This document shows positions 4,064 through 63,946 of a stretch of DNA of 64,000 bases, in pieces. Under the pieces are notes generated by a model. The model was given only the letters and a program-made list of their open reading frames with translations. It had not been told where the DNA came from and did not search any database. Source of the stretch: a virus (lineage: Duplodnaviria > Heunggongvirae > Uroviricota > Caudoviricetes); the IMG/VR virus record IMGVR_UViG_3300042922_001018. The stretch is one strand, 5' to 3'. The first letter of the stretch is position 1, and each line of letters opens with the position of its first letter. Position numbers and translations under genes: made by a program.

Positions 4064-4711
4064 CTAGAACTCGCTGCCGACGAAGGTCGTGTCGTTCTCG
4101 TAACGTGCAGCGTTCGCCAAGTCTTCCTCGGTCTGCTCGACGCCACCCGTGTTGATGAGACGGAAGATTTCTGCCTCTTCGCCGACGGTCTTGACGTTCG
4201 CTTCCAGAGTCGAGAACGGACGATTGCTCCAGTGGCGCTGGCCGATGATGGATAGACCGCTGTACGCGACTTCCGGCTCCTCCGAGTCCGGCTCTTCCAG
4301 GAAGCGGTCCTCGAACCAGTGGCGCGGGACGGTGAACTCGTCTTTCTCCCAAGCGCGCAGGGTCTCGATGCGCTGCTTGCCGTCCACGACTGCATACGCC
4401 TTTTGAAGGTGGTAGCCGCGCTTGTTGATGACGACCGAACCGGTGGGCAGGCCCATCAGCATGGAACGGACAAGAGCCTGGCGACGCTCAACGTCCCAGA
4501 CCGAGCCGCGCTGGTACGGGGTCTCCAGGTCGAACTGGTCGCCACCATCACGCTCCATGGTGTAGTGCTGAACGGTGTGGTTGTACGCCTGAAGCGAGAG
4601 ACGTGGCAGCGGCGCCGGGCGCGTCGGCAGCTTGACCTCAGGGGATGCGCCGGTCTTCTCAGCGAACTTGCCGTCGGTCTTGCGGGGGTGGTCGGTCTCG
4701 TCGAAGCTCAT
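4064..4711 (-). CDS. N-terminal-leader family protein with DUF262/ParB-like (GmrS-like) nuclease-fold domain
   Basis: MSFDETDHPRKTDGKFAEKTGASPEVKLP leader; then YQRGSVW...VVDGKQRIETL, resembling the DGQQR motif of the DUF262/ParB-Srx fold; SD GGAG 4 nt upstream. Confidence 0.65.
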   Translation of the reverse strand: MSFDETDHPRKTDGKFAEKTGASPEVKLPTRPAPLPRLSLQAYNHTVQHYTMERDGGDQFDLETPYQRGSVWDVERRQALVRSMLMGLPTGSVVINKRGYHLQKAYAVVDGKQRIETLRAWEKDEFTVPRHWFEDRFLEEPDSEEPEVAYSGLSIIGQRHWSNRPFSTLEANVKTVGEEAEIFRLINTGGVEQTEEDLANAARYENDTTFVGSEF

Positions 4712-4719
4712 GCTCCGAC

Positions 4720-4728
4720 TGTAGGCGG
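4720..4728 (-). promoter_or_regulatory. CCGCCTACA element (minus strand) 8 nt upstream of ATG of gene 4064-4711
   Basis: tgcaCCGCCTACAGTcggagcATG; TACAGT fits a -10 hexamer TANNNT 6 nt before the start codon. Confidence 0.45.
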
Positions 4729-4747
4729 TGCAGCGCGGTACCGCAAC

Positions 4748-5077
4748 CTACATTTCGGTTTCGGACAACTCATGGGTGGTGATGGAGACGACAGGCGTAG
4801 TGTGCCGCGTCGTCCCTTCACCCGCGCTGAGGGGTTCCAGCGTCAGGATGAGTGGCAAGCCGACCCGGATGACATCGAACGAATCCGGAGACTTCACGCC
4901 GTGGAGCGTGACGATACGAACCCACTCGTCGTCGCAGCGCATCTCCATGAACCCGAACCCGCCATCGGCAGCAGCGCTGGGAGGGGAAGGGTTCAGACGC
5001 CGGACACGTGACAGGTCCGGCAGGAACTCGTAGATGGCGCCGGAGGCAGTCGTTGCCCGCGTCACCGTGATGTTCAC
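4748..5077 (-). CDS. hypothetical protein (109 aa), paralogue of 5074-5292
   Basis: N-terminus TVTRATTASGAIYEFLPDLSRVRR vs TLVKTRDGAQYEFTADKLHVRD in the next gene. Confidence 0.45.
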   Translation of the reverse strand: MNITVTRATTASGAIYEFLPDLSRVRRLNPSPPSAAADGGFGFMEMRCDDEWVRIVTLHGVKSPDSFDVIRVGLPLILTLEPLSAGEGTTRHTTPVVSITTHELSETEM

Positions 5078-5292
5078 GTCAGGTCCAGGATGTCAGTCAC
5101 ATTGCTCGTGTAGAAGGCTCCTCCGCCTTCGAGCACCTGGAACATACTGAAGCCCAGTTCAATGGAAGCGGGCGCTACCAGTTCGCTCCACGTCTTCTCT
5201 GACGCGTCGCGGACGTGGAGCTTGTCGGCGGTGAACTCGTACTGCGCACCATCGCGCGTCTTCACCAGGGTTGTCGGAGTCATGAGGGTCAT
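5074..5292 (-). CDS. hypothetical protein (72 aa), paralogue of 4748-5077
   Basis: ATGA overlap with neighbours; shared N-terminal motif. Confidence 0.45.
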   Translation of the reverse strand: MTLMTPTTLVKTRDGAQYEFTADKLHVRDASEKTWSELVAPASIELGFSMFQVLEGGGAFYTSNVTDILDLT

Positions 5293-5957
5293 GGTACCAC
5301 GGTTTCCTTCAGATAGTCAGGAGGGATTTCGTCCCTCCACCCTTGTAGGATGATGTCGATAGGCGCGAGGAACTCGTGGTGCGCGGAGTTGTCAAGGTCG
5401 AGTCCGTAGGACTGCGGCAACATGAACTGGCGCATGTACTCGGGGTCCACGCCCGCATCGTACACGCGGCAGTAGTCTTCCTCTTCGAAGAAGGGAACGC
5501 GCGCTGCGTACTCGGCCGGGATGCCACGGGCATAGACCCGGCTCAGCATGAAAGGCGTCGCGAATCGGTTCGTACCAACCAGGCGGAGCATGTAAGAGAC
5601 GGGAACGTCGCGCATGCCCCACCAGTTTCCCTGTGCGTCTACCACTCCGCGCAGGTTCGGGTTCTTCTCCAGACAGAGCCGCAGAAAGGCGAAGTGCAGG
5701 ATGCTGTCAGCGTCCGCACCGACATGCTCGGCGTGCCGCATCAGGTTCTCGAAGTCGGCCGGACCGCTTATGGATGTCACATGGCGTTGGACGGGGATGG
5801 GTGTGCCCTCGGCGAAGTGCCGTGCGTATTCCCACCTGTTCTCGGTCAGAATGTCGAAGAACTGGAGCACGTGGCCAGGTCCGCTGAACACGCTAGCCGC
5901 GTATTCGCGGACCTCTGGGTTCGTTCCCCAGCCGCCGTGCATTGCCAGACCGAACAT
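5289..5957 (-). CDS. G[VI]PxEY[AL]-motif family protein (222 aa)
   Basis: Contains RGIPAEYAARV and AGVDPEYMRQF. Confidence 0.55.
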   Translation of the reverse strand: MFGLAMHGGWGTNPEVREYAASVFSGPGHVLQFFDILTENRWEYARHFAEGTPIPVQRHVTSISGPADFENLMRHAEHVGADADSILHFAFLRLCLEKNPNLRGVVDAQGNWWGMRDVPVSYMLRLVGTNRFATPFMLSRVYARGIPAEYAARVPFFEEEDYCRVYDAGVDPEYMRQFMLPQSYGLDLDNSAHHEFLAPIDIILQGWRDEIPPDYLKETVVP

Positions 5958-6592
5958 CAGAGGTTCTTCTTCTCCAGAATCACGGCGTAGTCGGCGATGA
6001 GCAGGCGTTCCAGTTCGTCTACGAAGCTCATCGGGTCTTCTCGGTAGTCCGGGTCACTGGTGACGACATCCAGGAATTCGTCGCGAGTAACCACACGCGC
6101 CTCGCTGACGCCCGAACCGTACCTCCGGTAGTCCTCGGACACCTCTGCGAAACTCGTGAGTCCTGTGGCGTCCAGGACGGTGTGTGGGCCAGCTAGAACG
6201 GCCGCGTGGCCGCTCCATTCGCCATCCGCTTCCACATCGCGGCTGGTGAAGAGAACCAGCGGCAGGCCCGTACGGTCGTGAAGAGCGAGGGCGAGGAGCG
6301 TGCAGGCACCATGACGGAACAAGCTGATGGCTTCAGCGTCCAGCTCGCCGTATGTGACAGTCGCGCTCTGGGAGCCGATGTAGATGTCGAACTCTTTCAC
6401 GAAACGGCTGCTCGACTCGTACAGCTCATCGAGGCTCAGTTCCGGGTTCGCTTCAGCGACCCGTTCGAAGATGAGAGTGTGAAGAGCCGAGTTGCTCGGA
6501 AGTGTGCGCCAGTCCATGCGTCTATGGTACGCCGCAGCGCCCGGTGTGTCAACTATGCGGTCAGGTACTCGATGGCGATGCCCTGCTCCCAT
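5957..6592 (-). CDS. hypothetical protein (start uncertain)
   Basis: ORF with 1-nt overlap to the downstream gene; N-terminal ~25 aa Arg/His-rich, real start may be the internal Met (MDWRTLPSN). Confidence 0.4.
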   Translation of the reverse strand: MGAGHRHRVPDRIVDTPGAAAYHRRMDWRTLPSNSALHTLIFERVAEANPELSLDELYESSSRFVKEFDIYIGSQSATVTYGELDAEAISLFRHGACTLLALALHDRTGLPLVLFTSRDVEADGEWSGHAAVLAGPHTVLDATGLTSFAEVSEDYRRYGSGVSEARVVTRDEFLDVVTSDPDYREDPMSFVDELERLLIADYAVILEKKNL

Positions 6593-8314: not shown

Positions 8315-8355
8315 CGTTCGGTTCGTCCGAGGTCTCGTTACGTCTCGGTCGAGGG

Positions 8356-10629: not shown

Positions 10630-10740
10630 TCAGTTCTCACCCTAGGATACCGGAGTCCATCCAAAAGGATGAATACGCGGTACTGAGTATGTACTGACTA
10701 GTAGGCTGCGACTAGCGGAATGCTCTCTCGCCCGGTGGTT

Positions 10741-12084: not shown

Positions 12085-12158
12085 ACCTCTATGGTAGCGG
12101 GGAAGCTAAGACACTTAGCCTACTAATTACCGAGGAAACTACTTAGGCCCACACTGAT

Positions 12159-13144: not shown

Positions 13145-13542
13145 GCGAACCTATCTTGAAGCGTACCGATGAGGCGACCGGCGCCTGGGTGTCCGGCCGT
13201 CTGCTCGTCGGTGCGTTCACGGATGAGCATGCTGACGAGGCGTACTATTCGGACTTCGCGCCGTACGCGGACATCGTTTCCACCCGTGATGAGGAGCGTG
13301 TGCTGTTCGTTGCGGGCGTCTATGTCCCGACGGAGCATCGCGGACAAAGGCTCGGCCTGCGGCTTCTCGACGAACTAACCGAGGAGCTGGAAGCCGACAG
13401 AGATGTCCTGGTGGCACAAGAATTCGAGACGCCGTCCGCCTGGGTGCACCCCGCTCGTCTGGAGCTGTACTACTTCAACGCCGGGTTCCGACGCATCGGA
13501 TGGACGATGGAGCGGTGCCCGCTGATGCAGCGGGTTCACTGA
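13141..13542 (+). CDS. GNAT family N-acetyltransferase
   Basis: Motif A VYVPTEHRGQRLGLRLLDEL (R/Q-x-x-G-x-G/A); 133 aa. Confidence 0.6.
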   Translation: MSEPILKRTDEATGAWVSGRLLVGAFTDEHADEAYYSDFAPYADIVSTRDEERVLFVAGVYVPTEHRGQRLGLRLLDELTEELEADRDVLVAQEFETPSAWVHPARLELYYFNAGFRRIGWTMERCPLMQRVH

Positions 13543-14078
13543 CGCCAGGCGGAAATCTCGCGGGCAGCTTTCGCGGTCTTGCTCTCGATGGTGCCGATGT
13601 CGTAGCTACGTCGTTCGAAGCGGACGTTCTCTGAGTCGCCCAGGTCGTACCACACGTCTTCGTTGTCGAGCTGGACCGAGCGACCATCGGTCGCAGTGAC
13701 GTTCCCGGCGGTGTTCTCGTCGCCGACGTACACCGCGATGTCTTCCCCTTCGAGAGATGCGACGTAGCGGCGTGCGAACACATCGCCGGAGTGCTCTGGG
13801 GTGGTGTTCAAGGCGCAGTGCAGAGTGTCGCAGTCGCTACCGGAGTAGCCTTCGAGACCGGGCTGCCCCATGCCTACGTGGTAGTCGGCGATGTCCTCGA
13901 TGAAGTCCTGGTCGAGGTCATCGAGGAGATTGCCGAGCGCGATGGGGGTCGTCATCTTCTGCGCGCGGAGAGCCTCAATCATGGAGCTGTGGCTCAGGCG
14001 GACTTCGGGAACAGTGCCAGTCTTCTCAGCGAACTGTCCCGACTCATCACGCGGATGCTCCGACGGGTTGAAGCTCAT
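13536..14078 (-). CDS. N-terminal-leader family protein (variable C-terminal domain)
   Basis: MSFNPSEHPRDESGQFAEKTGTVPEVRLSH; ATG 14078 lies 2 nt after the upstream TGA (translational coupling); track GTG 14087 is alternative. Confidence 0.6.
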   Translation of the reverse strand: MSFNPSEHPRDESGQFAEKTGTVPEVRLSHSSMIEALRAQKMTTPIALGNLLDDLDQDFIEDIADYHVGMGQPGLEGYSGSDCDTLHCALNTTPEHSGDVFARRYVASLEGEDIAVYVGDENTAGNVTATDGRSVQLDNEDVWYDLGDSENVRFERRSYDIGTIESKTAKAAREISAWRQ

Positions 14079-14080
14079 GG

Positions 14081-14884
14081 TCACCACCGGTCCATTTCAG
14101 TGTTGCTCTCAACGACATCGACTCGGCCGTCCATGTAGTCGATGCGAGTGATACTTCCGCCGGAGGAGATGCGGTTGATAACGCCGGGTGCTCCGCCTTC
14201 AGTCGGTCGGACCACTTCGCCTTCCTTCAGCGAGGAGGCAGGCTCGGTGACCTGCTCGCGGTTGCGCACGGCGAACTGTGCGTACGCATCGTACAGTTCA
14301 CGTTCTTCGCCTGCCTCGTCGGAGGAGTACAGACCGGAGAGTGCGACCTCGTTGAACTCAGCGTCCTGGCCGAGGAACGGCAGCTTGGCGATAGCGGTAC
14401 GGACCGCGGCGCCCGCCGTCATGGGTTCCGCGGATGAAGACAGCCCGACGAAACGCCCGCGGTTGGCCCCGTAGAAACCGCCACGGGCGAGAAGCATCTC
14501 GTGTCGGTAGAGGCCGTCGGGCTGCCGAACGACAGACTTGACGACACCGACGATTCCCTGGTTCTCAACGAGCTTCTCGAAGTCCTCCGCACCCGGCGGG
14601 CGGAAAGTGTTGAGCGGACGCCCGGCGCCGACAGCGTTGCTGTCCGCGAGAGCATCCCACGCCCGCATACGGCGTCCGGCGACATCCTCACTCTGGAGCA
14701 TCCGCGCGACCTGTACCTGCGAGTAGCCGTTCAGACCGATTTCGTCGGACAGCGGTGGCCAGTGCTTCGAGAAGGTGCGCTCGGGGAAGTCCATCCTTTC
14801 GAGCACGACATCGGAAGAAAGACCGACCTTTTCGGCGAACTTGCCGTCGGTGGTGCGGGGGTGCTGCGCAGAGTCGAAAGTCAT
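14081..14884 (-). CDS. N-terminal-leader family protein (267 aa)
   Basis: MTFDSAQHPRTTDGKFAEKVGLSSDVVLE; preceded by caCCGCCTACAaccgggcATG. Confidence 0.65.
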   Translation of the reverse strand: MTFDSAQHPRTTDGKFAEKVGLSSDVVLERMDFPERTFSKHWPPLSDEIGLNGYSQVQVARMLQSEDVAGRRMRAWDALADSNAVGAGRPLNTFRPPGAEDFEKLVENQGIVGVVKSVVRQPDGLYRHEMLLARGGFYGANRGRFVGLSSSAEPMTAGAAVRTAIAKLPFLGQDAEFNEVALSGLYSSDEAGEERELYDAYAQFAVRNREQVTEPASSLKEGEVVRPTEGGAPGVINRISSGGSITRIDYMDGRVDVVESNTEMDRW

Positions 14885-15519
14885 GCCCGGTTGTAGGCGG
14901 TGTGCAGACGGGTGTAGAGCGTTTCCGCATCATCCTGCCCTACCCACACGTTCGAACCGTCAGGGTAGACCATCCTGAAGCGGCGTCCCCCGCCTGTCCT
15001 GAACTCTTCTCCGATACGACCGTTCGGGTCTCCGCCTCGGAGAGCTTCATGCAGCTCTTCATGGAGTTCATGGGCCTCGGTGGCGCTCAGCTCGCGGGCC
15101 TTGGAACGTGCGGTGCTGACGCGGATGTTTCCTGCGGCATCTGCGGCCTCGTGCGCTTCACAGATAGCGACAAGTTCTCTGGCGGTTGCGGCTGCGGCTC
15201 GCGCCTGCTCTCGACTGCCGGGGGTGGAGAACAATCGGCGCGCCTTAGCCTCGTGCGCTTCAGCGATGGCGGTGTAGCGTGAGCAACGTTCTCCATGCGA
15301 GCGCGCCCCGCGATAGGCATTCCGTAGCTCATCGAGCTGGGAAGTTCCTGCGCGCTGGATTCGATACTCCAGTTCGCTCTCTGCAAGGCGCTCGCGAAGA
15401 GAGTTGGGGAAAGTGGGGACACCCGCGGGTGTGGACAAGGTTACCTCCGGTGCGAGACCTTCCTTGAAGCCGAAGCGACCGTCCTGCTCGCGGCTTACCA
15501 GTGTCTCATCAAAAGCCAT
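14881..15519 (-). CDS. N-terminal-leader family protein, degenerate leader (212 aa)
   Basis: MAFDETLVSREQDGRFGFKEGLAPEVTLSTP; preceded by tcCGCCTACAcccgattATG. Confidence 0.6.
   Translation of the reverse strand: MAFDETLVSREQDGRFGFKEGLAPEVTLSTPAGVPTFPNSLRERLAESELEYRIQRAGTSQLDELRNAYRGARSHGERCSRYTAIAEAHEAKARRLFSTPGSREQARAAAATARELVAICEAHEAADAAGNIRVSTARSKARELSATEAHELHEELHEALRGGDPNGRIGEEFRTGGGRRFRMVYPDGSNVWVGQDDAETLYTRLHTAYNRA
14892..14900 (-). promoter_or_regulatory. CCGCCTACA element upstream of gene 14081-14884 (lies inside the 3' end of gene 14881-15519)
   Basis: ctgcacaCCGCCTACAaccgggcATG. Confidence 0.4.
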
Positions 15520-33830: not shown

Positions 33831-35036
33831 TTACGAGTAGATTTCCTGGAGGTCTTCAGCTACCTGCGCCCAGGTGATGCCGGAAGGAAGAACGAAACCG
33901 GAAGGCTGGTTCCCTGCATACCACGCGGAGCCACCCGTTGCCGGACGGGTGCGCATGACGGACGCCGAGTTGTCCGCCGGACCGACCCACGCATACTGGA
34001 CGGAAGGGTCCGAGGTCGTGGAGGAACCTGAGAAGAACGAGGCGTTCTCGCCCAGCTCGTAGGAAAGGTTCGTGACACGAGCGATGTCGTCGCCTGCGGC
34101 GAACCGCGCGCCTACCGTAACAAGCTGAGGGACATGAAGCTGATTGAAGTCGGTGAGCGTCTGGCGTGGCGTCAGCGTCACAGTGCGCTCAACACGCTGC
34201 CATCCAGATTCTCCGGTGAAGGTGAAGTTGTTCTGGTACGTGGTGCCGTTGGCGCCGTTGATGGGAAGCTCGACCCGCATTGTGGTACCCGCGAGCTGGG
34301 CGGGGAGCCAGATGTCCATGCCGAATGTGACCGTCTGCGACGTGGTCGCTGGGAGCGTGAGGACCGTGCCGCCGTTACCGCCGAGACGTGTTCGGAACGC
34401 CTGCGAAGAGCCATCAGATGAGGCCACTCGCAGCGACCCAGCATTCTCACCGTTCGGCCCAGCACCCGCCTCGAAGACGACGTTCGAGCTGTACCCGCCA
34501 GGGTTCTGGACGTAGTACGTGAGGCCACCCGGCGCCGCATTCGGGTTCGGAAGAAGGTTGCGGCGGGACTCCGCCCACGCACCATACGAGGAGGAACCGT
34601 TGAAGCCGGAAATCTCGAAGATGTCGCCACCTTCAGAACTCCGCGCGTAGACAGCGCCGCTGGCGCTCTTCGTTACAGCAACCCACCCCGCACCGGAAGA
34701 GCGTACGATGGTATTGGTTCCTTCGGACGGCGTGAACCCGATGGCTGCGTCCTGCAACTCAGTGTCCTGCGTGCCGACGTTCGGACCGTAGGACATCGTT
34801 CCGTAGCCGTCGTTCTGCACCATGTACGCGGCTTGCGCGGTCGCGATACGGTCGAGGTCACCCTTCGCGTTGAGGTTGTGTGCGTTCGAGATGAAGCCGG
34901 AGATGGCGAAGGAACCGCCCACGAGCAGGATGAGCGTGATAGCGATGCCCGCGATGATGAGAATGGGGTCAGTTGCGCCGCGCTCCTCGCGCAAACGCGC
35001 GATTTCGGCCTTGCGGGCCTTCAGCCGCTCCATCAT
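33831..35036 (-). CDS. TadE/pseudopilin-like signal-anchor protein, cassette 4 of 4 (401 aa)
   Basis: MMERLKARKAEIARLREERGATDPILIIAGIAITLILLVGGSFAISGFISNAHNLNAKGDLDRIATAQAAY...; conserved C-terminus LPSGITWAQVAEDLQEIYS. Confidence 0.65.
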   Translation of the reverse strand: MMERLKARKAEIARLREERGATDPILIIAGIAITLILLVGGSFAISGFISNAHNLNAKGDLDRIATAQAAYMVQNDGYGTMSYGPNVGTQDTELQDAAIGFTPSEGTNTIVRSSGAGWVAVTKSASGAVYARSSEGGDIFEISGFNGSSSYGAWAESRRNLLPNPNAAPGGLTYYVQNPGGYSSNVVFEAGAGPNGENAGSLRVASSDGSSQAFRTRLGGNGGTVLTLPATTSQTVTFGMDIWLPAQLAGTTMRVELPINGANGTTYQNNFTFTGESGWQRVERTVTLTPRQTLTDFNQLHVPQLVTVGARFAAGDDIARVTNLSYELGENASFFSGSSTTSDPSVQYAWVGPADNSASVMRTRPATGGSAWYAGNQPSGFVLPSGITWAQVAEDLQEIYS

Positions 35037-36235
35037 GAGTTCACATCCCGGAGGTCAGCGGAGACATCATCCCAGGAGATACCGGCGGGGAGGTTCAGGT
35101 CAGCGGGCTTCGCCGAAGGCAGCCACACCTGTCCGGCGCCGGGCAGAAGCGACCGCGTCTCGCGGACAGATGTCGAGCTGTTCTCCGCTCCAGTCCAGCG
35201 TGAACGCTCCGTGGCGGAGCCAGTGCTCGAACCGTCCATGTAAGCACCCTGAGTGCCTTCGAACAGACCCACGGAGTCCCACTTGATGCGGCTGGGCGAA
35301 CCTGCGGTGTCGCCGCCGTACAGGCGAATGGTGTTGTAACCGGTGAAGGCCGCAGGCGTAGTGAACGCGCCAGTGAGGGTGCGCGTGCCTGCCGTGTTCA
35401 CGCCCTGGAAGAGTCCGACCTGCGTGCCATTGAGGTGGACGAAGAGGGAGACCTTCTGTTCCAGACCGGTGGTAGCGCCTGCGGCGATAGAAGTGAACGG
35501 AGCGTCGAGCGTGTACGTGGCCGTGATGGTGTATGTCGTGGAAGGCTTCAGGGAGTTCGCTCCGGTGCCACCACGACCGCCTTCGACGGAACTGATGATG
35601 TCGGCGTATGCGTCTGTATTGGCGTCGGCAGTACGCGTCAAGGCCAGCGAGTAATCGCCGGAGGCTGCCCCCGCAGCCACTCGTGCGCCGGTCACGCGGT
35701 TGTAGCTGACGCCGCTGAGGTCGTTCTCGAAGGAAGGGTTCCGGATGAGGTTACGACGAGTCTCGGTCCACGCGGTGTAACCGTCCGGGTCCGGCCCCAT
35801 TTCGCCGTTCATCTCGAACGTCTTGGCGCTCTCCGATGTGCGAACGAAGACCTTGCCGGAGGCCGACTTCGTAGCCGCTACCCAGCCGTCAGCAGAAGTG
35901 CGGACGACCGTGGAGTTCCCGGCCGTCGGGGTGAAACCGATGGCTGAGTTCTGAAGCTCCGTATTCTGGGCCGCGACATTCGGACCGACGGCGAGCGCAC
36001 CGTACCGGTCGTTGGACGCGAGATACGCGGCCTGGGCGGTCGCGACACGGTCGAGGTCACCCTTCGCGTTCAGGTCATTCGCGTTCGCGATGAAACCGCT
36101 GATGGCGAAGGAACCACCGACGAGCAGGATGAGTGTGATTGCGATACCCGCGATGATGAGGATGGGGTCGGTCGCACCGCGCTCCTCGCGCAGGCGCGCG
36201 ATTTCGGCCTTACGGGCTTTGAGTCGTTCAAGCAT
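35033..36235 (-). CDS. TadE/pseudopilin-like signal-anchor protein, cassette 3 of 4 (400 aa)
   Basis: Near-identical first ~120 aa; C-terminus LPAGISWDDVSADLRDVNS; ATGA overlap with the upstream gene. Confidence 0.65.
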   Translation of the reverse strand: MLERLKARKAEIARLREERGATDPILIIAGIAITLILLVGGSFAISGFIANANDLNAKGDLDRVATAQAAYLASNDRYGALAVGPNVAAQNTELQNSAIGFTPTAGNSTVVRTSADGWVAATKSASGKVFVRTSESAKTFEMNGEMGPDPDGYTAWTETRRNLIRNPSFENDLSGVSYNRVTGARVAAGAASGDYSLALTRTADANTDAYADIISSVEGGRGGTGANSLKPSTTYTITATYTLDAPFTSIAAGATTGLEQKVSLFVHLNGTQVGLFQGVNTAGTRTLTGAFTTPAAFTGYNTIRLYGGDTAGSPSRIKWDSVGLFEGTQGAYMDGSSTGSATERSRWTGAENSSTSVRETRSLLPGAGQVWLPSAKPADLNLPAGISWDDVSADLRDVNS

Positions 36236-37377
36236 TACTGCACCTCCGCTGCGTCAGCGCCCACCTGTTGCCAGGTGATACCCGCGGGGAGCGTGAAGCC
36301 CGCTGGCTGATTCGCGATGATAGGACGGACGCTCTTGATAGAAGCGGAGTTGTTGACCGTTCCGGCCCAGGAGTAGACCGCGTCCGCTGTAGCGGGCGTA
36401 GACCCACTGAAGAAGTCGCGAGACGGGTCGTAGTCGCCGGGGTACAGGTCGATGGAAGAGATGTCCATGAACCAACCGGGAGTCTTGGAAGACGGCGTGG
36501 TGACGATACGTGCGTCGGAACCGCTCGCGGCATCACGGACGAATGTCGTCCATACCCGGACGGTCGTGCCAGCGGCAAGAGACCATGCCGATGAGTTCGA
36601 TGATGCTACGAGTGTCGAATCCCCGACCGTGCCGGAGAACCCCATCTGAGACATGTTCGTGGCGCCGGAGACTCGCACATCGTAGGCGATGGTGTAGCGC
36701 TCCCCGACAGGAGCCGCGGAGATGAGGGGACCAGTGTTACCCGAGCCGCTGCTCGCGACGGCGGTCCATGTAGCGCGGACTGCCGACCCACTCGGCGCCC
36801 ACGGCGCGGCGACAACCGACCGCTCATAGACGTTCCCAGCGTTACCTGCCCATCCACCGAAGGAGCTGCCGAGCGTAGCGTTCGAGTTCGGGAAAAGGTT
36901 CCGTGTGGCTTCGGCCGGTTCGCCGTACTGCGGATTGGACGAATCTGCTCCCAGCTTGAAGATTGTGCTGGAGGAGGACGAGCGGAGGAACACGTCGCCG
37001 GAGGCGCTCTTCGTCACGGCTGTCCATCCGCTTGGCGAAGTGCGCACCTTTACGTTGTTGCCCGCAGTCGGCGTGAACCCGATGGCCGCGTCAGCAAGCT
37101 CCGTGTTCTGAGTCGCAACATCAGGACCGACCGACAAGTTGCCGTAGCGGTCGTTGGTCGCGAGGAACGCGGCCTGGGCGGTAGCGATGCGGTCGAGGTC
37201 GCCCTTGGCGTTCAGGTCATTCGCGTTCGCGATGAAACCGGAGATAGCGAAGGAACCGCCAACGAGCAAGATGAGGGTAATCGCGATACCCGCGATGATG
37301 AGGATGGGGTCGGTGGCACCGCGCTCCTCGCGCAGGCGTGTGATTTCGGCCTTACGAGCCTTCAGTCGTTCAAGCAT
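36235..37377 (-). CDS. TadE/pseudopilin-like signal-anchor protein, cassette 2 of 4 (380 aa)
   Basis: SD GGAGG 7 nt upstream; TAATG overlap with the upstream gene; C-terminus LPAGITWQQVGADAAEVQ. Confidence 0.65.
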   Translation of the reverse strand: MLERLKARKAEITRLREERGATDPILIIAGIAITLILLVGGSFAISGFIANANDLNAKGDLDRIATAQAAFLATNDRYGNLSVGPDVATQNTELADAAIGFTPTAGNNVKVRTSPSGWTAVTKSASGDVFLRSSSSSTIFKLGADSSNPQYGEPAEATRNLFPNSNATLGSSFGGWAGNAGNVYERSVVAAPWAPSGSAVRATWTAVASSGSGNTGPLISAAPVGERYTIAYDVRVSGATNMSQMGFSGTVGDSTLVASSNSSAWSLAAGTTVRVWTTFVRDAASGSDARIVTTPSSKTPGWFMDISSIDLYPGDYDPSRDFFSGSTPATADAVYSWAGTVNNSASIKSVRPIIANQPAGFTLPAGITWQQVGADAAEVQ

Positions 37378-38543
37378 TACTGTACCTCCGCGGCATCAGT
37401 TCCTACCTGCTCCCAGGAGATGCCAGAAGGAAGCGAGACACCAGTCGGCATGTTCGCGATGATGGGACGGATGCTCTTGATGGAAGCCGAGCTGTTCGCG
37501 GGGCCAGCCCAGCCATAGTCGGTGCTGACCGTGTCGGCAGAAGCGCCGCTGAAGAAAGTACGTCCCGCCTGGTAGTCGCCCGCGTAAAGGTCGAAGTCAG
37601 AAGACTCGATGGACTGTCCCGAGATGACTCCGGTCAGGCCGCTGTGGAGGCGCATCGAGCTGACGGCAAGCGCAGCAGGAGTCCCGGTGGCCGTGAAGGT
37701 GACGTAGACCACGGTAGGCGTGTTCGCGGGGACAGCGCGGCTTCCGCTGCGCTCATGCACGGTAACTGTCATGCCCGTACCGGTCTGGTCGATGCTCGGC
37801 TGGTTCAGGTTGAAGGCGCGAGTCGAGAAGACCTTGAAGGCGAGAGTCATCTTCTCACCGAGAACGTAGCTGCCGCCCAGGTACGGCGTGGGTCCACCGA
37901 AGGTCGCGCCCACAGTCGTGTACGTCGCTCGAAGAGCGCGGCCGTTCGTGCTCCATGACACAGCCGGGTTGGACGTGGTGACGGTGGACGCGTTCGCCCA
38001 GTAGTTCATGTCCGTGGAGGTGGCAGCGTCCGGGTTGCGGTACAGGTTCCGGGTGTCTTCCTGAGCTGCACCGTACTGCGGGTTGTCGGCGTCAGTACCG
38101 AGCTGGTGAACCTGGGTGGACTGAGAGGTGCGGAGGAAGATGTCCCCAGAGGCGCTCTTCGTGACAGCCGTCCAGCCGCTCGGCGAGGTGCGGACCTTGA
38201 TGCTGTTGCCTGCGGTCGGCGTGAACCCAATCGCCGACTCTGCCAGCTCGTTCGATGCGCCGGAAACATTCGGACCGATGGCCAGGTTGCCGTACCGGTC
38301 GTTCGCTGCGAGGAACGCAGCCTGCGCCGTGGCGACTCGGTCGAGGTCACCCTTCGCGTTGAGGTTGTTCGCGTTCGCGATGAAGCCGGAGATGGCGAAA
38401 GAACCACCCACGAGCAGGATGAGGGTAATCGCGATACCCGCGATGATGAGGATGGGGTCGGTGGCACCGCGCTCTTCGCGGAGGCGGGTGATTTCCGCCT
38501 TCTTAGCTTTCAGGCGCGCAAGCATGGGGAGAGGCCGTGACAT
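37377..38543 (-). CDS. TadE/pseudopilin-like signal-anchor protein, cassette 1 of 4 (start 38543 or 38525)
   Basis: MSRPLPMLARLKAKKAEITRLREERGATDPILIIAGIAITLILLVGGSFAISGF...; C-terminus LPSGISWEQVGTDAAEVQ. Confidence 0.65.
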   Translation of the reverse strand: MSRPLPMLARLKAKKAEITRLREERGATDPILIIAGIAITLILLVGGSFAISGFIANANNLNAKGDLDRVATAQAAFLAANDRYGNLAIGPNVSGASNELAESAIGFTPTAGNSIKVRTSPSGWTAVTKSASGDIFLRTSQSTQVHQLGTDADNPQYGAAQEDTRNLYRNPDAATSTDMNYWANASTVTTSNPAVSWSTNGRALRATYTTVGATFGGPTPYLGGSYVLGEKMTLAFKVFSTRAFNLNQPSIDQTGTGMTVTVHERSGSRAVPANTPTVVYVTFTATGTPAALAVSSMRLHSGLTGVISGQSIESSDFDLYAGDYQAGRTFFSGASADTVSTDYGWAGPANSSASIKSIRPIIANMPTGVSLPSGISWEQVGTDAAEVQ

Positions 38544-43282: not shown

Positions 43283-43996
43283 TCAGGTACACACAGGTCG
43301 CGCAAGGGCAGCGGTCCACCGTCTGTGCTTCAACCGGAACATAGGTTCGTACCGTTCATCCTCCAGCGGCGACGCGAACTCGCCGATACTGCGGGGTAGA
43401 CAATCGTAACGCCCGAGCGGGTTCCCATCGTCCGGTAGCTTGTCGCGGTATCCGGCCTTCGTGATGAGGTCGTCTTCCTCTTTCGTGATGACCGCGAATC
43501 GTGGACCGGTGTGAGCATCGCGAAGGTGATGGAGCATGGCTGCACCATCCGGTATCTCCCCGTCCCGGTAGGCGGTGAAGAGCCGGTCTACGATGAGCCT
43601 CTGCGGCATGACGTGTTCGAGGCGGAGCCGGTGGCTGATGTTCTCCCCCGTGAGCAACAACTCGCGCGCATCCGGCGACCAGGGCAAGCCCGCTGCGAAC
43701 TGACCGGAGCCACCATGCTTCGGGCCTGGTAGCCGGGGATGCTGCCAGTCCTCAGCAATCTGATGACGGGCTGTCTTCTTCAGAACACCACGCGCAGCCC
43801 GGCGTTCCCAGACTACGAGGTACTCGAACAAGTCCTCTGCGTCCTGGCCATCGACCGGAAGTTCGATGAGCTGCTGTGCCTGAGGGTCCGTCCAATGAGC
43901 AGGCGCTTCCACGAGCGACAGCTCCGGCGCGGACCCCACCTTCTCTGCGAAGCGCCCCTCCGTATCACGGCGGACATCGGTCTCGGAAAAGGTCAT
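43283..43996 (-). CDS. N-terminal-leader family protein (237 aa)
   Basis: MTFSETDVRRDTEGRFAEKVGSAPELSLVE; internal echo of the leader HPRLPGPKHGGSGQFAAG. Confidence 0.6.
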   Translation of the reverse strand: MTFSETDVRRDTEGRFAEKVGSAPELSLVEAPAHWTDPQAQQLIELPVDGQDAEDLFEYLVVWERRAARGVLKKTARHQIAEDWQHPRLPGPKHGGSGQFAAGLPWSPDARELLLTGENISHRLRLEHVMPQRLIVDRLFTAYRDGEIPDGAAMLHHLRDAHTGPRFAVITKEEDDLITKAGYRDKLPDDGNPLGRYDCLPRSIGEFASPLEDERYEPMFRLKHRRWTAALARPVCT

Positions 43997-50416: not shown

Positions 50417-50704
50417 ATGAGCACGGACATCAACCCCGCAGAGACCATCGACCAGGCCATCAACGCGCTGCCTTTCGTGCGCCGTGGCCACGACGACCGG
50501 GCCGCGTACGACGAAGCGTACGACACTCTCGTGGAGCAGTTCAAGGATGCCCTCTACGCAGAGAGCGGCGAGGGACTCACCCCCGCCCAGGCGGAGCACA
50601 TCTACCAGTTCGCCTACCGCGAAGGCCACGCCTCCGGCTGGTACGACATCCGGAACCAGTACATCGACCTCGCGGACTTCGCCCGCACCATCCTCGCTTC
50701 CTGA
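50417..50704 (+). CDS. hypothetical protein (95 aa); leaderless homologue of the C-terminal domain of gene 63476-63946
   Basis: PAQAEHIYQFAYREGHASGWYDIRNQYIDLADFARTI vs EQHAKLFDRAWEQGHSSGYYSVESEYEDLAEFVETF. Confidence 0.5.
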   Translation: MSTDINPAETIDQAINALPFVRRGHDDRAAYDEAYDTLVEQFKDALYAESGEGLTPAQAEHIYQFAYREGHASGWYDIRNQYIDLADFARTILAS

Positions 50705-52305: not shown

Positions 52306-52833
52306 ATGACTTTCAACCCCTCCGACCATCCGCGCGAAGCCAGCGGCCAGTTCACTGAGAAGGCGGGCGAGGCGCCCGAAATCACGCTCGAACGCGTCAA
52401 GGAAGTTCTCAGCACGCCCGACTCTCGCGGTGGCCGCTACGGCTCGTTCGGAGGGCACCCTGTCTACATCCCCGGTGCGCCTCGCGTGCACGCAGACCTC
52501 GACGAGCTACGGAAAGGCGTGGACCGAGCCACGTGGTCGTTCGTTGAGCAAGCGCTTCAGAACACGCGGAACACCTTCCGCGAAGACGAAGCGGAGTTCC
52601 TCCACAGTCTGACGAAGAGCGCCCGTGACAACACGTACTACGCAGAGCGACTGAACGGTGTCATCGACAAGTACATCAGCGGTCTGAAAGGCAAGCACAT
52701 CCGCGTCACGGACGACGAAGATGACGACACCTACACCATGCGTATCGAAGACACGCGGCCCGGCGGCGAAGTCCTTATCGGCGGTCGGTGGGAGAAGCTG
52801 AACAGTCAGCACGAGTGGGGTATCATCGGGTGA
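52306..52833 (+). CDS. N-terminal-leader family protein (175 aa)
   Basis: MTFNPSDHPREASGQFTEKAGEAPEITLE; the track's TTG start at 52282 is an upstream extension. Confidence 0.6.
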   Translation: MTFNPSDHPREASGQFTEKAGEAPEITLERVKEVLSTPDSRGGRYGSFGGHPVYIPGAPRVHADLDELRKGVDRATWSFVEQALQNTRNTFREDEAEFLHSLTKSARDNTYYAERLNGVIDKYISGLKGKHIRVTDDEDDDTYTMRIEDTRPGGEVLIGGRWEKLNSQHEWGIIG

Positions 52834-60291: not shown

Positions 60292-60711
60292 ATGACTTTC
60301 AACGAAGCAGAAACCGCACGCGACACCGAGGGTAAGTTCGCCCCGAAGACCGGCGCTGCCGCAGAGGTCGCGCTCGACGACGACGAGGTGGCGTTCTACC
60401 GGCGCGAGGTAGCGGAATCGTTCGAGCGCGGCATCATCACCCTCACCGACATGGTTGAGACCGCCAAGGAGCGTACCGCCCACCCTACGCGCCTCATCGG
60501 CAAGCGCGACGGCCTGGTCAAGGTCTGGGAGCGCCAGGGCGACCGCATCCAGAACGCGAAGAGCCTGCATGATGTCGCCGCCATCATCGGCTTCATCCGC
60601 CTGGAATCGCCCTCGGAGCCGGACGCCGCCGAAGGCGAGAAGGAAGGCGAAGAACTCGCCATCAGCTACCTGCGTGGTCTCGCGCGTCACCTTCCTGACG
60701 ACGGGAAGTGA
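60292..60711 (+). CDS. N-terminal-leader family protein, degenerate leader (139 aa)
   Basis: MTFNEAETARDTEGKFAPKTGAAAEVALDDDE; the track's GTG 60277 is an upstream extension. Confidence 0.55.
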   Translation: MTFNEAETARDTEGKFAPKTGAAAEVALDDDEVAFYRREVAESFERGIITLTDMVETAKERTAHPTRLIGKRDGLVKVWERQGDRIQNAKSLHDVAAIIGFIRLESPSEPDAAEGEKEGEELAISYLRGLARHLPDDGK

Positions 60712-60766: not shown

Positions 60767-61036
60767 TCAGCTCGCGGCGTTCGCCTTCTCGATGACGAGG
60801 TCGGCTGCCGTCTGTGCGAGGTCAACGGCCTTCTGAAGCTGGATGGCAAGAGAAGCCCCGATGATGCGGTCCGAGATGGACTGCGCGAGGTCAGCGGCCT
60901 GCTGGACAGACTCGCCGAGGGTGGACGCGGACGGCGCTGGCGCGGGGGTTGCCGCCATCGCGGGCGAAGCGCCACCGAGCGTAAGAACGCCCGCGACGAG
61001 GAGGGAGGCGGGGACGAGTGCAAGCTTCTTGTTCAT
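60767..61036 (-). CDS. small secreted protein (~89 aa)
   Basis: MNKKLALVPASLLVAGVLTLGGASPAMA signal peptide; Ala/Gln-rich helical. Confidence 0.45.
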   Translation of the reverse strand: MNKKLALVPASLLVAGVLTLGGASPAMAATPAPAPSASTLGESVQQAADLAQSISDRIIGASLAIQLQKAVDLAQTAADLVIEKANAAS

Positions 61037-61046
61037 GTTCAGCAGT

Positions 61047-61631: not shown

Positions 61632-61667
61632 GTCCCGAGTCTAACATGCGCCGGAGCCGAATCACCG

Positions 61668-61988
61668 TCAGGGCGTGAGACGAGCGATGAGCGACTTCTC
61701 GGACTGCATTTCGGTGATGAACTCGTCAAGCCCGTTGACCCTCCCCTCAAAGGACACGGAGTAGACTTTGCGCGCCGTGTACGGGTCGGTGTAGCTGCGG
61801 TCCTGACCGGTAATGCCCTGCTCGGCGAGGAACGCAAGAACGCGGGTGACCTCGCGGAGGTTCTTCAGGTCCGGTGTGAAGCGCTCACGTGGTGCGGGAC
61901 TCCAGGAGGCAATGAACCAGACGACCGTGAGAACGGCGGCAATAACGACTCCGGTAAGGAAGAACTGCTGGATGGCTTCGCTGGTCAT
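61668..61988 (-). CDS. small membrane protein (106 aa)
   Basis: N-terminal TM LTGVVIAAVLTVVWFIASW. Confidence 0.4.
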   Translation of the reverse strand: MTSEAIQQFFLTGVVIAAVLTVVWFIASWSPAPRERFTPDLKNLREVTRVLAFLAEQGITGQDRSYTDPYTARKVYSVSFEGRVNGLDEFITEMQSEKSLIARLTP

Positions 61989-62028
61989 GACATCATGCTA
62001 ACGCCATCCGGCTGCGAGTGTCAACTCG

Positions 62029-62301
62029 TCAGAGGTACTTCTCGTACCGCTCTTGGAACTCGGCCGGGAGCTGCTCGATGAGCGGTCGCGCCATCTCGCG
62101 GAGCTTAGCGTCCACGCGGGTTCCGATGGCCTCACCGTTGATGAACATGTTGGTGTCCGGCTGGAACTCTCTGACGCACTCGTCGATGAAATCCTGACCG
62201 TACTCCGGCTGGATGAGAAGCTCGATGATGGCGAAGTTCACGGCGTGCAAGGAAGCCTGCTCGTGAGTCGCGAGTTCGGTCGGCGTTGCGGTCATGGGCA
62301 C
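62029..62301 (-). CDS. hypothetical protein (90 aa)
   Basis: ORF. Confidence 0.4.
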   Translation of the reverse strand: MPMTATPTELATHEQASLHAVNFAIIELLIQPEYGQDFIDECVREFQPDTNMFINGEAIGTRVDAKLREMARPLIEQLPAEFQERYEKYL

Positions 62302-62574: not shown

Positions 62575-63132
62575 ATGTCTGAACCGACCCACGAAATCGT
62601 CATCGGCGTCTACCAGGACTCTTTCGTCCGTGGCATCCGATGCCTGCACACGGAGCGCGGAGAGGTCTGTGCGCCGGACGCAGAGACGCAGGCACACCCG
62701 GACTTCGCAGAGACCGTCTACGAACTCTGCTGGAATCCCGAGCAGCCGACTGCGGGTCAGTGCTTCTGGGAGGACTACTTCTTCGGGATGAGTGACTTCT
62801 ACGCGGACAACGGGGACGCCCCCGAGTCGCTGACACTCTTCACGACGCCGGTCACCGTCGTCACCGAGCACCCGCTCGTCGTCCGAGAAGACCCCAACGG
62901 GAAGTCCACCTTCGCCATCCGGGGCGAGAACGGTGACCACATCGGGATGGAGCTGGACGGCAAGTACATCTCCGACATCGAACTTCCGCTGGAGTTCCTG
63001 GTCGTTCACCCGGTCATCTGGACCGTGGAACAGGTCCAGGAAATCCTCTGGACGACCGAAGGCGAGAAGCGGACTCTCCACCCCGGCGATACTCAGTGGG
63101 ACAAGTACGCCGCTCTGGTCACGACTGCGTAG
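62575..63132 (+). CDS. hypothetical protein (185 aa)
   Basis: Protein-like ORF, Trp/Cys-containing. Confidence 0.5.
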   Translation: MSEPTHEIVIGVYQDSFVRGIRCLHTERGEVCAPDAETQAHPDFAETVYELCWNPEQPTAGQCFWEDYFFGMSDFYADNGDAPESLTLFTTPVTVVTEHPLVVREDPNGKSTFAIRGENGDHIGMELDGKYISDIELPLEFLVVHPVIWTVEQVQEILWTTEGEKRTLHPGDTQWDKYAALVTTA

Positions 63133-63135
63133 CGG

Positions 63136-63417
63136 TCAGTACCGCGGCTCGAACATCTCGTCATCGTCGTAGATGCGCCAGCCATCCTCTGAGCTGGTTA
63201 CACGTCGCTCATGCCTGCGGCGGCGTGGTTCAGCGACTAGCGCCGGTTCGACCTCCGGTGAGAAACGCGCGCTGCCGAGGAGTCGCTCGACTACCTGAAC
63301 GTCATGCGCCATCGCGATGAGCGGATTGTCCCAGATGGGAGCCGGGTTCGCGGGAGTCACAACACGGCCATCAGCCAGGCGGTACGGTCTCGGCGCTGTC
63401 ATCCCCATGGACTTCAT
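63136..63417 (-). CDS. hypothetical protein (~93 aa, start trimmed to MKSMGMTAPRPYR)
   Basis: Track N-terminus (74 aa) is Arg/Ser/Cys-rich junk. Confidence 0.4.
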   Translation of the reverse strand: MKSMGMTAPRPYRLADGRVVTPANPAPIWDNPLIAMAHDVQVVERLLGSARFSPEVEPALVAEPRRRRHERRVTSSEDGWRIYDDDEMFEPRY

Positions 63418-63441
63418 CGTACCAGTCTGGTAGCGTTGTAT

Positions 63442-63450
63442 CCGCCTACA
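63442..63450 (+). promoter_or_regulatory. CCGCCTACA element 25 nt upstream of ATG 63476 (with SD AGAAAGG)
   Basis: tatCCGCCTACAgccgattactacagaaaggctacccATG. Confidence 0.4.
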
Positions 63451-63475
63451 GCCGATTACTACAGAAAGGCTACCC

Positions 63476-63946
63476 ATGACTACGTTCGACGAGACCGAAC
63501 ATCCTCGTGCCACCGACGGCAAGTTCGCTGAGAAGACCGGCTCCGAGCCGGAGGTCGGCCTGCCGCAGGCGAAGCGCCTCACGGCCGAAGAGTTGGCTGG
63601 CCTGTCCGACGAGGAGCGTCGCGCCGTCGCGCAGCACAACTTCGACTTCTTCCAGGCTCAGGGCGGCACCATCCACCAATCCGCCCAGGATGCGAACAAC
63701 GCCGCTATCTACCCGCGCACGAAGGAGGAGAAGCAGTATTGGCTCGCTCACCGGAAGTACGAGGGAGACGTGAAGAAGGTGTTCGGTGAGGCGCTCCGCG
63801 AAGCGTACGTCTTCAGCGACATCACCGACGAGCAGCACGCGAAGCTCTTCGACCGCGCGTGGGAGCAGGGTCACTCTTCCGGTTACTACTCCGTCGAGAG
63901 CGAGTACGAAGACCTCGCCGAGTTCGTGGAGACGTTCCGCAACTGA
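63476..63946 (+). CDS. N-terminal-leader family protein, best-conserved leader (156 aa)
   Basis: MTTFDETEHPRATDGKFAEKTGSEPEVGLPQ; C-terminal domain homologous to leaderless gene 50417-50704. Confidence 0.6.
   Translation: MTTFDETEHPRATDGKFAEKTGSEPEVGLPQAKRLTAEELAGLSDEERRAVAQHNFDFFQAQGGTIHQSAQDANNAAIYPRTKEEKQYWLAHRKYEGDVKKVFGEALREAYVFSDITDEQHAKLFDRAWEQGHSSGYYSVESEYEDLAEFVETFRN

Follow-up and report, generated by a model that had tools for sequence, protein, structure and literature searches.

A conserved N-terminal leader on unrelated proteins of a probable giant actinobacterial plasmid, with a counterpart between the domains of phage polyvalent proteins

Introduction

Signal-tagged effector repertoires are already known, and so are the escort proteins of mobile DNA. 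Polyvalent proteins (Iyer, Burroughs, Anand, de Souza, and Aravind 2017, PMC5512222) combine from 2 to 15 effector domains in a single polypeptide; mobile elements encode them, and they are predicted to be delivered with the invading DNA. A conserved delivery module with variable effector domains is also seen in the polymorphic toxins fused to MuF and in effectors packaged into heads (Jamet 2017, PMC5576092; Zhang 2012, PMC3482391). A short tag defined by its sequence would make it testable how polyvalent and escort proteins get selected for packaging or transfer. We describe here a candidate for such a tag in a stretch of 64,000 nucleotides (record IMGVR_UViG_3300042922_001018), the whole of which is called the window. 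Eight of its proteins, otherwise unrelated, open with the same leader. The preliminary description of this DNA, made from the letters alone, could assign the leader to no known family. The leader is not isolated, however: its core recurs between the domains of phage polyvalent proteins, a kind which that description did not name and which is the closest one.

The Leader and Its Cargoes

The eight open reading frames (ORFs) listed in the preliminary description were all recovered at the following positions and strands, each opening with the leader. The E value in each line is that of the leader against a hidden Markov model (HMM) built from the other seven.

Gene 1, 4064..4711, minus strand: 215 aa; leader in codons 1-30 (4622-4711), a PTRPAP linker, then a DUF262/GmrSD_N (ParB-like) domain; E 1.2e-18.
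Gene 2, 13536..14078, minus strand: 180 aa; leader 13989-14078; cargo family unrecognised, homologues P0016 and P0059 likewise under this leader; promoter-distal, the first of three genes in a tandem array (13536-15519); E 9.4e-15.
Gene 3, 14081..14884, minus strand: 267 aa; leader 14795-14884; cargo unrecognised, homologue P0093; E 4.9e-12.
Gene 4, 14881..15519, minus strand: 212 aa; leader degenerate (VSR for HPR), 15430-15519; cargo rich in His, Glu, and Ala; stop codon overlapping the beginning of gene 3; E 2.1e-8.
Gene 5, 43283..43996, minus strand: 237 aa; VRR leader 43907-43996; homologue P0118; E 1.6e-12.
Gene 6, 52306..52833, plus strand: 175 aa; leader 52306-52395; homologue P0042; E 7.7e-14.
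Gene 7, 60292..60711, plus strand: 139 aa; TAR leader 60292-60381; identical to P0037; E 5.2e-12.
Gene 8, 63476..63946, plus strand: 156 aa; leader 63476-63568, with one extra Thr after Met; cargo matching phrog_10980; E 7e-16.
Leaderless paralogue of the gene 8 cargo, 50417..50704, plus strand: two-member BLASTP family with gene 8 (E < 1e-4); N-terminus MSTDINPAET, without the motif.

Alignment of the eight leaders gave the consensus M-[TS]-F-[DN]-x-x-x-(HP)R-x-x-x-G-[KQR]-F-x-x-K-x-G-x-x-[PAS]-[ED]-[VIL]-x-L, in which F3, R10, G14, F16, K19, G21, and L28 are invariant. The HPR consensus proposed earlier held in its strict form, HPR-x3-G-x-F, in five of the eight leaders; in the other three the His-Pro pair is lost and the position reads VSR (14881-15519), VRR (43283-43996), or TAR (60292-60711).

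The statistical weight of the leader was evaluated on 2020 six-frame ORFs from the window and both 10-kb flanks. In this set the leave-one-out models detected the eighth leader with E values from 1.2e-18 to 2.1e-8, and the profile of all eight retrieved the same eight ORFs only; considering that the next-best ORF had E > 1, the window and its flanks hold exactly eight copies. A degenerate DNA pattern of the leader occurred at 5 sites against 0.00 expected from 100 dinucleotide-preserving shuffles. The leader-coding DNA is 44-76% identical, with synonymous codon differences at the invariant residues, and therefore conservation acts at the level of the peptide and does not reflect a recent DNA duplication. 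An explanation at the level of RNA or of a DNA repeat was ruled out on these same grounds. The leader is neither a DNA repeat nor a low-complexity artefact; the latter, which the preliminary description had named among the outcomes that would overturn it, is contradicted by the significant profile alignments.

Beyond the leader the eight proteins have nothing in common, as had been claimed: with the first 32 residues removed, every pairwise BLASTP among the cargoes gave E > 0.4. The proteins have 139-267 aa and at most one Pfam domain each. The only firm assignment among them is the GmrSD_N/DUF262 domain of gene 1 (Pfam E 7e-16), which the preliminary description had recognised. Leaderless homologues of this cargo begin at ...LPRLSLQSYNHT. 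Since the cargo of gene 8 also has a leaderless paralogue (50417-50704), the leader is a separable add-on. The AlphaFold2 model of the gene 1 protein, built on a 73-sequence alignment, agrees with this modular organisation: the DUF262 domain reached a predicted local distance difference test (pLDDT) score of 88-98, while residues 1-30 were modelled as coil with pLDDT ~61 and did not pack onto the domain.

The leader (MTTFDETEHPRATDGKFAEKTGSEPEV) has no hydrophobic stretch and its net charge is negative, so that it lacks the features of a Sec or Tat signal peptide; nor does this acidic, predicted coil contain a WXG or LXG helix. Zero matches on the leader were found in Pfam, NCBIfam, and PHROGs and nothing significant in a profile search of the PDB, in line with the preliminary description, which could assign it to no known family. 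A word-indexed search with the leader profile gave no match. The PDB search yielded only a match to the beta-hairpin of ribosomal protein S16 (E 0.85, not significant). Leader residues 8-21 (R-x-x-D-G-K-F-x-E-K-x-G) resemble the S16 hairpin TDARRKRDGKYIEKIG (PDB 4zer_1p and other S16 chains), probably by chance. The idea of an S16-like hairpin binding DNA or RNA was set aside in view of this E value and the acidic character of the peptide. Full-text literature searches brought up no relevant work on an HPRxxxG-type motif, and it is absent from the papers on polyvalent proteins, MuF toxins, and polymorphic toxins; PMC5512222 makes no mention of it.

The Same Core inside Phage Polyvalent Proteins

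An exhaustive HMMER search with the leader profile over 1.84 billion cluster representatives (E <= 1e-3) returned 616 matches, which have two architectures. The first, seen in ~85 of the best 150 of the 616 matches, consists of small proteins of 65-350 aa in which residues 1-30 make up the full leader. A Pfam domain was found in only 5 of the 85, and their cargoes, together with the eight of the window (93 sequences), formed 55 BLASTP clusters. The second architecture (64 of the same best 150) corresponds to proteins of 420-4660 aa which contain typically 3-6, and up to 9, internal copies of the core. The consensus from 225 copies is [FW]-D-E-[SA]-x-H-P-R-D-x-x-G-[KRQ]-F-[TAG]-x-[KG]-G-G, followed by a Gly/Ser-rich linker; in the stand-alone leaders the core is extended by E-K-x-G-x-x-P-E-[VI]-x-L. 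The distance from motif to motif in the large proteins has a median of 251 aa, not far from the median length of the stand-alone tagged proteins, 218 aa.

The internal motifs bracket Pfam domains. In P0001 the ART-PolyVal domain (249-403) lies between motifs at 214 and 420, and in P0019 the Fic, Pyr_redox, and Zeta domains each lie between or after motifs. A census of 43 large proteins gave Phage_Mu_F (6), ADPrib_exo_Tox (6), ART-PolyVal (5), and NUDIX (4), and further GNAT, 2'-5' RNA ligase, Portal_Mu, Peptidase_S78_2, Zeta toxin, topoisomerase IB, and PFIN domains. The large multi-motif proteins are phage polyvalent proteins. In sequenced Gordonia phages the motif is located in a large protein encoded directly after the portal gene (GodonK gp67, Sixama gp73); elsewhere it occurs in a mycobacteriophage ADP-ribosyltransferase, in Gordonia fusions of RNA ligase and head protease, in a Helicobacter HI1409 (MuF) protein, and in a Faecalibacterium portal protein. 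SPP1 gp7, the MuF archetype, is without the motif, which is therefore not part of the MuF domain itself. The core of the leader is thus an inter-domain motif of phage polyvalent proteins, and polyvalent or escort effectors are the closest known kind.

Stand-Alone Repertoire and Variant Leaders

With a degenerate DNA pattern of the leader, 70 metagenome loci amounting to 398 kb were collected. They contain ~200 tagged ORFs, of which 151 are full-length; the cargoes form 65 clusters, and the genes commonly stand in arrays in which 2-7 genes of one strand abut each other. These 398 kb of related loci yielded no multi-motif ORF. The recognisable cargoes are GmrSD_N, SprT-like, MPTase-PolyVal, ArdC-N, Fic, Arr-type ADP-ribosyltransferase (ART), Peptidase_M78, zinc ribbons, and helix-turn-helix domains, the same vocabulary as the list of escort and anti-restriction domains in PMC5512222.

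The leader is not the same in all lineages. In other genomes the DUF262 cargo is found without a leader, with the leader of the window, or with lineage-specific variants. On a contig of a Microbacterium metagenome-assembled genome (MAG), 8 of 18 consecutive genes open with M-[ST]-x-F-[DN]-E-[ST]-L-HPR-GQAANA-GQF-x-x-K-x-ND-AP-x-x-x-L, and a Fic protein encoded there opens ...GGTPAGGEFARR.... The eight genes lie at 9419-18472 of locus L109 (Microbacterium sp. MAG JAFKIK010000006.1), and their loop (HPR-GQAANA-GQF) is longer by three residues, so the spacing from the Arg to G-x-F varies between lineages. The leaders of Curtobacterium citreum and of the plasmid pCPAA3, which has ~20 tagged genes, read ...R-[DN]-V-GG-x-x-ND-T-R-F-G-E-H-K-R-x-x-x-V-T-L or ...AR-E-x-AR-x-x-DGKFGEQHRP.... 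Common to all variants are the Arg, G-x-F a few residues on, a basic residue, and [VIL]-x-L ~10 residues further. Such lineage-specific drift of an otherwise invariant tag is as expected if it co-evolves with a receptor encoded by the element.

Nature of the Element

The window is part of a 450,372-bp contig of the Joint Genome Institute (JGI), Ga0456364_0000048 of 3300042934, with near-identical contigs in other samples, and gene 7 is encoded there. Its Pfam content is sparse (DNA methylase, ResIII helicase, SPFH, fatty-acid desaturase, YqeY, dUTPase, signal peptidase, Fic, and NAD-dependent ligase), no tRNA genes were found in the window, and megablast of 20 kb of the window against phages and plasmids gave no match. 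The methylase showed only distant relatives in a search of genome contigs, and the helicase had no match in IMG/VR. In PLSDB, the non-leader proteins of the window (prepilin-like and repeat families) matched three giant Curtobacterium plasmids of 0.55-0.61 Mb, the only other match being a cutinase-family gene on a Rhodococcus plasmid. tblastn with the leader itself led to complete circular plasmids of cultured Micrococcales:

Curtobacterium: pS16, NZ_CP126255.1, 545,759 bp; pCPAA3, CP018784.1, 567,298 bp; a third plasmid, 607,661 bp.
Other genera: Pseudarthrobacter, 417,721 bp; Arthrobacter, 400,603 bp; Glaciihabitans, 148,839 bp.

With regard to the size of pCPAA3, it is noted that matches in 1-20,400 of CP018784.1 recur in 546,900-567,298 with a constant offset of ~546,902 bp (4981/551883, 9499/556401, 14118/561021). 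The deposit therefore probably contains an untrimmed overlap of ~20.4 kb, and the true size would be near 546.9 kb, like that of pS16.

The Glaciihabitans plasmid is of an ordinary type, with RepA, ParA, sugar-catabolism genes, and insertion sequence elements. It has at least 10 tagged genes, all within 92.5-119 kb and on one strand, interleaved with an A24 prepilin peptidase, T2SS-F, two T2SS/T4P/T4SS ATPases, FtsK/SpoIIIE, a leucine-rich repeat surface protein, and an RNA ligase. It shares with pCPAA3 the genes for RepA, ParA, A24 prepilin peptidase, T2SS-F, pilus ATPases, two FtsK/SpoIIIE proteins, and M23. A VirB4-like AAA_10 ATPase was found in pCPAA3 and in the loci L074 and L056 (the Glaciihabitans plasmid being outside this comparison); in L074 and L056 its gene is just upstream of the leader arrays. 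The metagenome arrays are likewise located in loci with FtsK and M23 genes. The best PDB matches of the 1509-aa FtsK/SpoIIIE protein were entries named "DNA translocase coupling protein" (6o1z, E 4e-14), which correspond to TcpA from the pCW3 conjugation system of Clostridium; for this protein none of the EccC or EssC chains reached the threshold. The VirB4-like protein and a 569-aa FtsK protein had no match in a sequence search of the PDB.

Taking all this into account, the element most likely belongs to a family of giant Micrococcales (Actinomycetota) plasmids that have a Gram-positive conjugation-type apparatus. Our first view, based on DnaE, RNR, ThyX, RtcB, NAMPT, and homing endonucleases, was that of a huge phage; it was revised after the PLSDB matches and the recognition of the common RepA/ParA/TcpA-like/VirB4-like backbone.

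Other Genes of the Window

The remaining features of the window that could be described are the following.

N6/N4 DNA methylase (Pfam), 46629-49037, minus strand: 802 aa.
ResIII helicase (Pfam), 44038-46662, minus strand: 874 aa; adjoins the methylase, with tagged gene 5 immediately downstream.
Six Tad/Flp-like prepilin paralogues, 380-465 aa, minus strand: 9232-10629, 10741-12084, 33831-35036, 35033-36235, 36235-37377, and 37377-38543.

A methylase-helicase dyad is described for polyvalent-protein loci in PMC5512222; in the window it is formed by two separate genes. In Curtobacterium citreum and the Microbacterium MAG, methyltransferase and helicase are fused in a single protein of ~1600 aa.

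The four prepilin paralogues of 33831..38543 have the N-terminus ...ERG|ATDPILIIAGIAITL. All six open ...ERG|ATDPILIIAGIAITLIL..., which resembles a class-III (Tad/Flp-type) prepilin signal; a large variable domain comes after it. The prepilin homologues of pCPAA3 (75.9-80.5 kb) are located amid pilus ATPases, T2SS-F, A24 prepilin peptidase, and FtsK, and the paralogues of the window are candidate parts of a transfer or secretion apparatus.

A second system of shared ends is present on the minus strand of the window at 1689-2378, 5289-9171, 15545-33300, and 54276-54989. At least 25 genes end with 1-3 copies of G-[VI]-P-x-E-Y-[AL], the last copy ~10-15 residues before the C-terminus; 22 of the genes belong to one BLASTP family and 4 to another, and none of the 7 scanned had a Pfam match. 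The repeat could be a C-terminal signal or an anchoring repeat on a hugely expanded family of paralogues. Lipoprotein-like or signal-peptide N-termini (such as ...LLFAGCTP, ...LALTGCTAP, ...LLTGCATT) were observed on several small proteins, at 53064-53792 (plus strand) and at 57230-57730, 57775-58236, and 60767-61036 (minus strand), and two further signal-peptide proteins, one with PKD domains, at 41061-43270, which suggests a set of surface-exposed proteins. The ORF at 60843-62081 (plus strand, 412 aa) is of low complexity, rich in Arg, Val, and Gly, and overlaps the well-formed minus-strand genes 61047-61631 and 61668-61988; it is probably not a gene.

Discussion

The reading that we favour, and hold tentatively, is that the leader is an escort or translocation tag on unbundled anti-defence effectors. 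The eight genes would encode single-domain effectors of a giant Micrococcales plasmid, mostly aiding the survival and establishment of incoming DNA by anti-restriction or host modification. Each effector would carry a flexible N-terminal peptide of ~28 residues, whose core, [FW]-[DN]-E-x-x-(HP)R-x-x-x-G-[KRQ]-[FW], corresponds to the motif placed before each polyvalent-protein domain. In the plasmid lineage the polyvalent protein would have been split into dozens of genes, each with its own N-terminal copy of the motif. The DNA-transfer machine of the element would recognise the peptide, and in this way effector and DNA may enter the recipient together. As receptor, the TcpA-like FtsK/SpoIIIE coupling protein would be the most plausible candidate in the plasmids, acting together with the VirB4-like ATPase; for phages the portal/MuF end of the head may play this part. 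We favour this reading because the peptide is flexible, separable, and strongly constrained and marks many unrelated effector-type domains of mobile elements, because the same core precedes every module of proteins which others have argued to travel with DNA, and because the tagged genes of the plasmids are embedded in, or adjacent to, a transfer gene cluster. A short leader on unrelated cargo would also imply a dedicated recognition step, a proposal of the preliminary description which we support.

In a wider form, which is possible and clearly more doubtful, [FW]-D-E-x-x-H-P-R-x-x-x-G-x-[FW] would be a general, unnamed escort tag for export with mobile DNA, in phage heads as well as in Gram-positive conjugation channels, and giant Micrococcales plasmids would have ~20 to >50 separately tagged effectors, mostly of unknown fold.

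Several points weigh against the escort tag. The translocation signals that a type IV secretion system (T4SS) recognises usually lie at the C-terminus or internally, not at the N-terminus. The leader, being acidic, is unlikely to ride on DNA directly, and if one motif is to serve capsids as well as conjugation channels, either the receptors must differ or its function must be something other than loading. The tagged genes of the window are dispersed, no coupling-protein or VirB4 gene was found within 84 kb of the contig, and MOB-suite typed all these plasmids as non-mobilizable. The neighbours of the leader arrays include DnaE, RNR, ThyX, RtcB, NAMPT, SSB, and homing endonucleases, with very strong PHROG scores (DnaE, phrog_405, E 3.5e-253), and the 35 tRNA genes of pCPAA3 (CP018784.1, loci L114-L125) are all grouped in a single array, at 252-266 kb. 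PMC8929003 reports for pCPAA3 a distant homologue of TerL. With this report and the phage-like gene set, the delivery vehicle could still be a capsid. The giant plasmids therefore carry a jumbo-phage-like gene set combined with RepA/ParA and conjugation genes. In pS16, matching locus-tag gaps were observed beside dnaE, RtcB, RNA ligase, Thg1, DHFR, and tmk.

It is in this context that the first competing explanation has to be considered, one that we regard as unlikely. The element would be a huge phage or phage-plasmid, and the leader a capsid-targeting peptide docking the cargo to portal, MuF, or scaffold in the prohead. The prohead protease might then cut at the conserved [AS]-P-E|[VI]-x-L, as with the T4 capsid-targeting sequence; the final part of the leader is similar to the [SAG]-x-E and [LI]-x-E protease sites of phiKZ and T4. 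The large motif proteins fused to, or beside, MuF, portal, and prohead protease agree with this explanation, and so do the phage-like neighbours, the tRNA array, and the TerL of pCPAA3. However, no homologue of TerL, portal, capsid, or MuF turned up when pCPAA3, the window, and the leader-array loci were searched by tblastn (a weak test, with SPP1, GodonK, and Sixama queries only and 84 kb of the 450-kb contig covered), neither the 450-kb contig nor its relatives were found in IMG/VR, and the relatives are stable circular RepA/ParA plasmids in cultured isolates, among which the 149-kb Glaciihabitans plasmid has tagged genes and an annotation without a phage-like module. Given that a giant plasmid of conjugative type is the most likely identity of the element, rather than a phage or a locus of an extracellular contractile injection system (eCIS), the analogies that the preliminary description drew with T4-type capsid targeting and with eCIS leaders are unsupported for it: its only relatives in PLSDB are the giant Curtobacterium plasmids, and no TerL, portal, or capsid homologue came out of the limited search just mentioned. 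In real phages, though, proteins bearing the motif are encoded beside the portal gene.

Somewhat less likely again, the motif may be a docking peptide acting after entry, which would bind one conserved host factor, or a common partner or regulator, and gather or co-control the effector domains. A single intracellular target explains the phage-head and plasmid contexts more easily than two receptors do, and a flexible linear peptide repeated before every domain of a polyvalent protein would suit such a role; the weak likeness (E 0.85) to the rRNA-contacting S16 hairpin R-x-x-D-G-K-[FY]-x-E-K-x-G could be taken in the same sense. That match is not significant, though, and the variants HPR-GQAANA-GQF (Microbacterium MAG) and RDVGG..NDTRFGEHKR (Curtobacterium) better fit co-evolution with an element-encoded receptor than with a host factor.

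We consider it improbable that the motif is a proteolytic processing site or domain boundary, cut by MPTase, an SprT-like protein, or a host protease, with the stand-alone leader as a removable propeptide. The motifs are situated exactly between domains and are followed by Gly/Ser-rich linkers, zincin peptidases (MPTase-PolyVal, SprT-like, M78) are among the cargoes, and processing of polyvalent proteins was proposed in PMC5512222. But there is no reason for a pure cleavage site, with seven invariant positions, at the extreme N-terminus of hundreds of single-domain proteins, and an acidic coil of 28 residues is an unlikely inhibitor of unrelated folds. Processing would in any case be compatible with targeting, the two not being mutually exclusive.

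Most improbable is a set of classical polymorphic toxins for interbacterial competition, exported by a type VII secretion system (T7SS), Sec, or an eCIS with the leader as trafficking domain, which would account for a conserved N-terminus with hypervariable C-termini in tandem arrays and for the Rhs protein and FtsK-family ATPases of the Glaciihabitans plasmid, but immunity-sized genes are absent between array members both in the window (13536-15519, where 14081-14884 and 14881-15519 overlap) and in the metagenome arrays, the leader is an acidic coil without a hydrophobic core or a WXG or LXG helix, eCIS and type VI secretion system families are absent among the window Pfam matches listed and the top 25 of 53 neighbour families, the large FtsK protein matches the conjugative coupling protein 6o1z with no EccC or EssC above threshold, and what can be recognised among the cargoes is anti-restriction or host-modifying, unlike the typical nuclease or deaminase toxins. 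The polymorphic-toxin analogy of the preliminary description is weakened by the tagged genes standing back to back with no immunity-sized genes interleaved.

The escort-tag reading can be approached in cultured strains, the leader being present in Curtobacterium pS16 and pCPAA3 and in the plasmid of Glaciihabitans INWT7. As a search handle, the tag has already brought up several hundred small proteins from at least 55-65 cargo families, >85% of them without a Pfam domain, and by association these are candidate anti-restriction, anti-defence, or host-modifying effectors. If a general escort tag did exist, it would provide a ready-made catalogue of new anti-defence and host-takeover proteins, findable in any genome. 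The results also draw attention to the poorly studied actinobacterial plasmids of 0.4-0.6 Mb, in which plasmid replication and conjugation genes coexist with jumbo-phage-like replication, nucleotide-metabolism, and tRNA genes.

Comparison with Known Systems

Set beside T4 capsid-targeting sequences, eCIS leaders, T7SS substrates, and the T4SS signals known so far, the leader is distinct in its sequence, its position, or its genomic context. With the T4 capsid-targeting sequence (IPI-III/Alt) and the encapsulin cargo-loading peptides it has in common a short terminal peptide on unrelated cargo and, as a prediction here, the loading of a container; it has no sequence similarity to them, and no capsid or encapsulin shell gene was detected. 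No sheath, tube, or baseplate families of an eCIS are among the window Pfam matches listed and the top 25 of 53 neighbour families. From polymorphic toxins the tagged proteins differ in having neither a downstream cognate immunity gene nor a known N-terminal trafficking domain (signal peptide, WXG/LXG, PAAR, or MuF).

The MuF-fused toxins and head-packaged effectors (PMC5576092, PMC3482391) are similar in their organisation, and the large motif-bearing proteins often contain MuF or follow the portal gene. By contrast, the proteins of the window lack a MuF domain, the limited tblastn search found no head genes in the element, and SPP1 gp7 lacks the motif.

The substrates of T4SS coupling proteins (ArdC, the TraC1 primase, VirE2, and the Dot/Icm effectors) resemble the tagged proteins in that genes for a TcpA-like coupling protein and for a VirB4-like ATPase occur in relatives of the element, the tagged cargoes include ArdC-N, and a large effector repertoire stands under one signal. 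Their known signals are C-terminal or internal, whereas the leader is N-terminal and strongly conserved in sequence.

The closest likeness is to the polyvalent proteins of PMC5512222, with which the tagged proteins share the core motif, the ParB-like/DUF262, ArdC-N, MPTase, ART, and Fic domains, the encoding by a mobile element, the methylase-helicase dyad in the locus, and the predicted delivery with invading DNA. The eight proteins of the window have the domain vocabulary and the mobile-element context of that class, and also the inter-domain motif [FW]DExxHPRxxxG[KRQ]F, a criterion defined in this analysis and not in PMC5512222. They do not have 2 to 15 effector domains per polypeptide and, because this defining multi-domain feature fails, they are not filed as members of the class. 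In the literature searched we found no description of the tag, of its two architectures, or of its expansion in the giant plasmids of Micrococcales. What distinguishes the tagged proteins from polyvalent proteins is that each small gene encodes one domain, that the motif is N-terminal and bears the E-K-x-G-x-x-P-E-[VI]-x-L extension, and that there are dozens of them per element.

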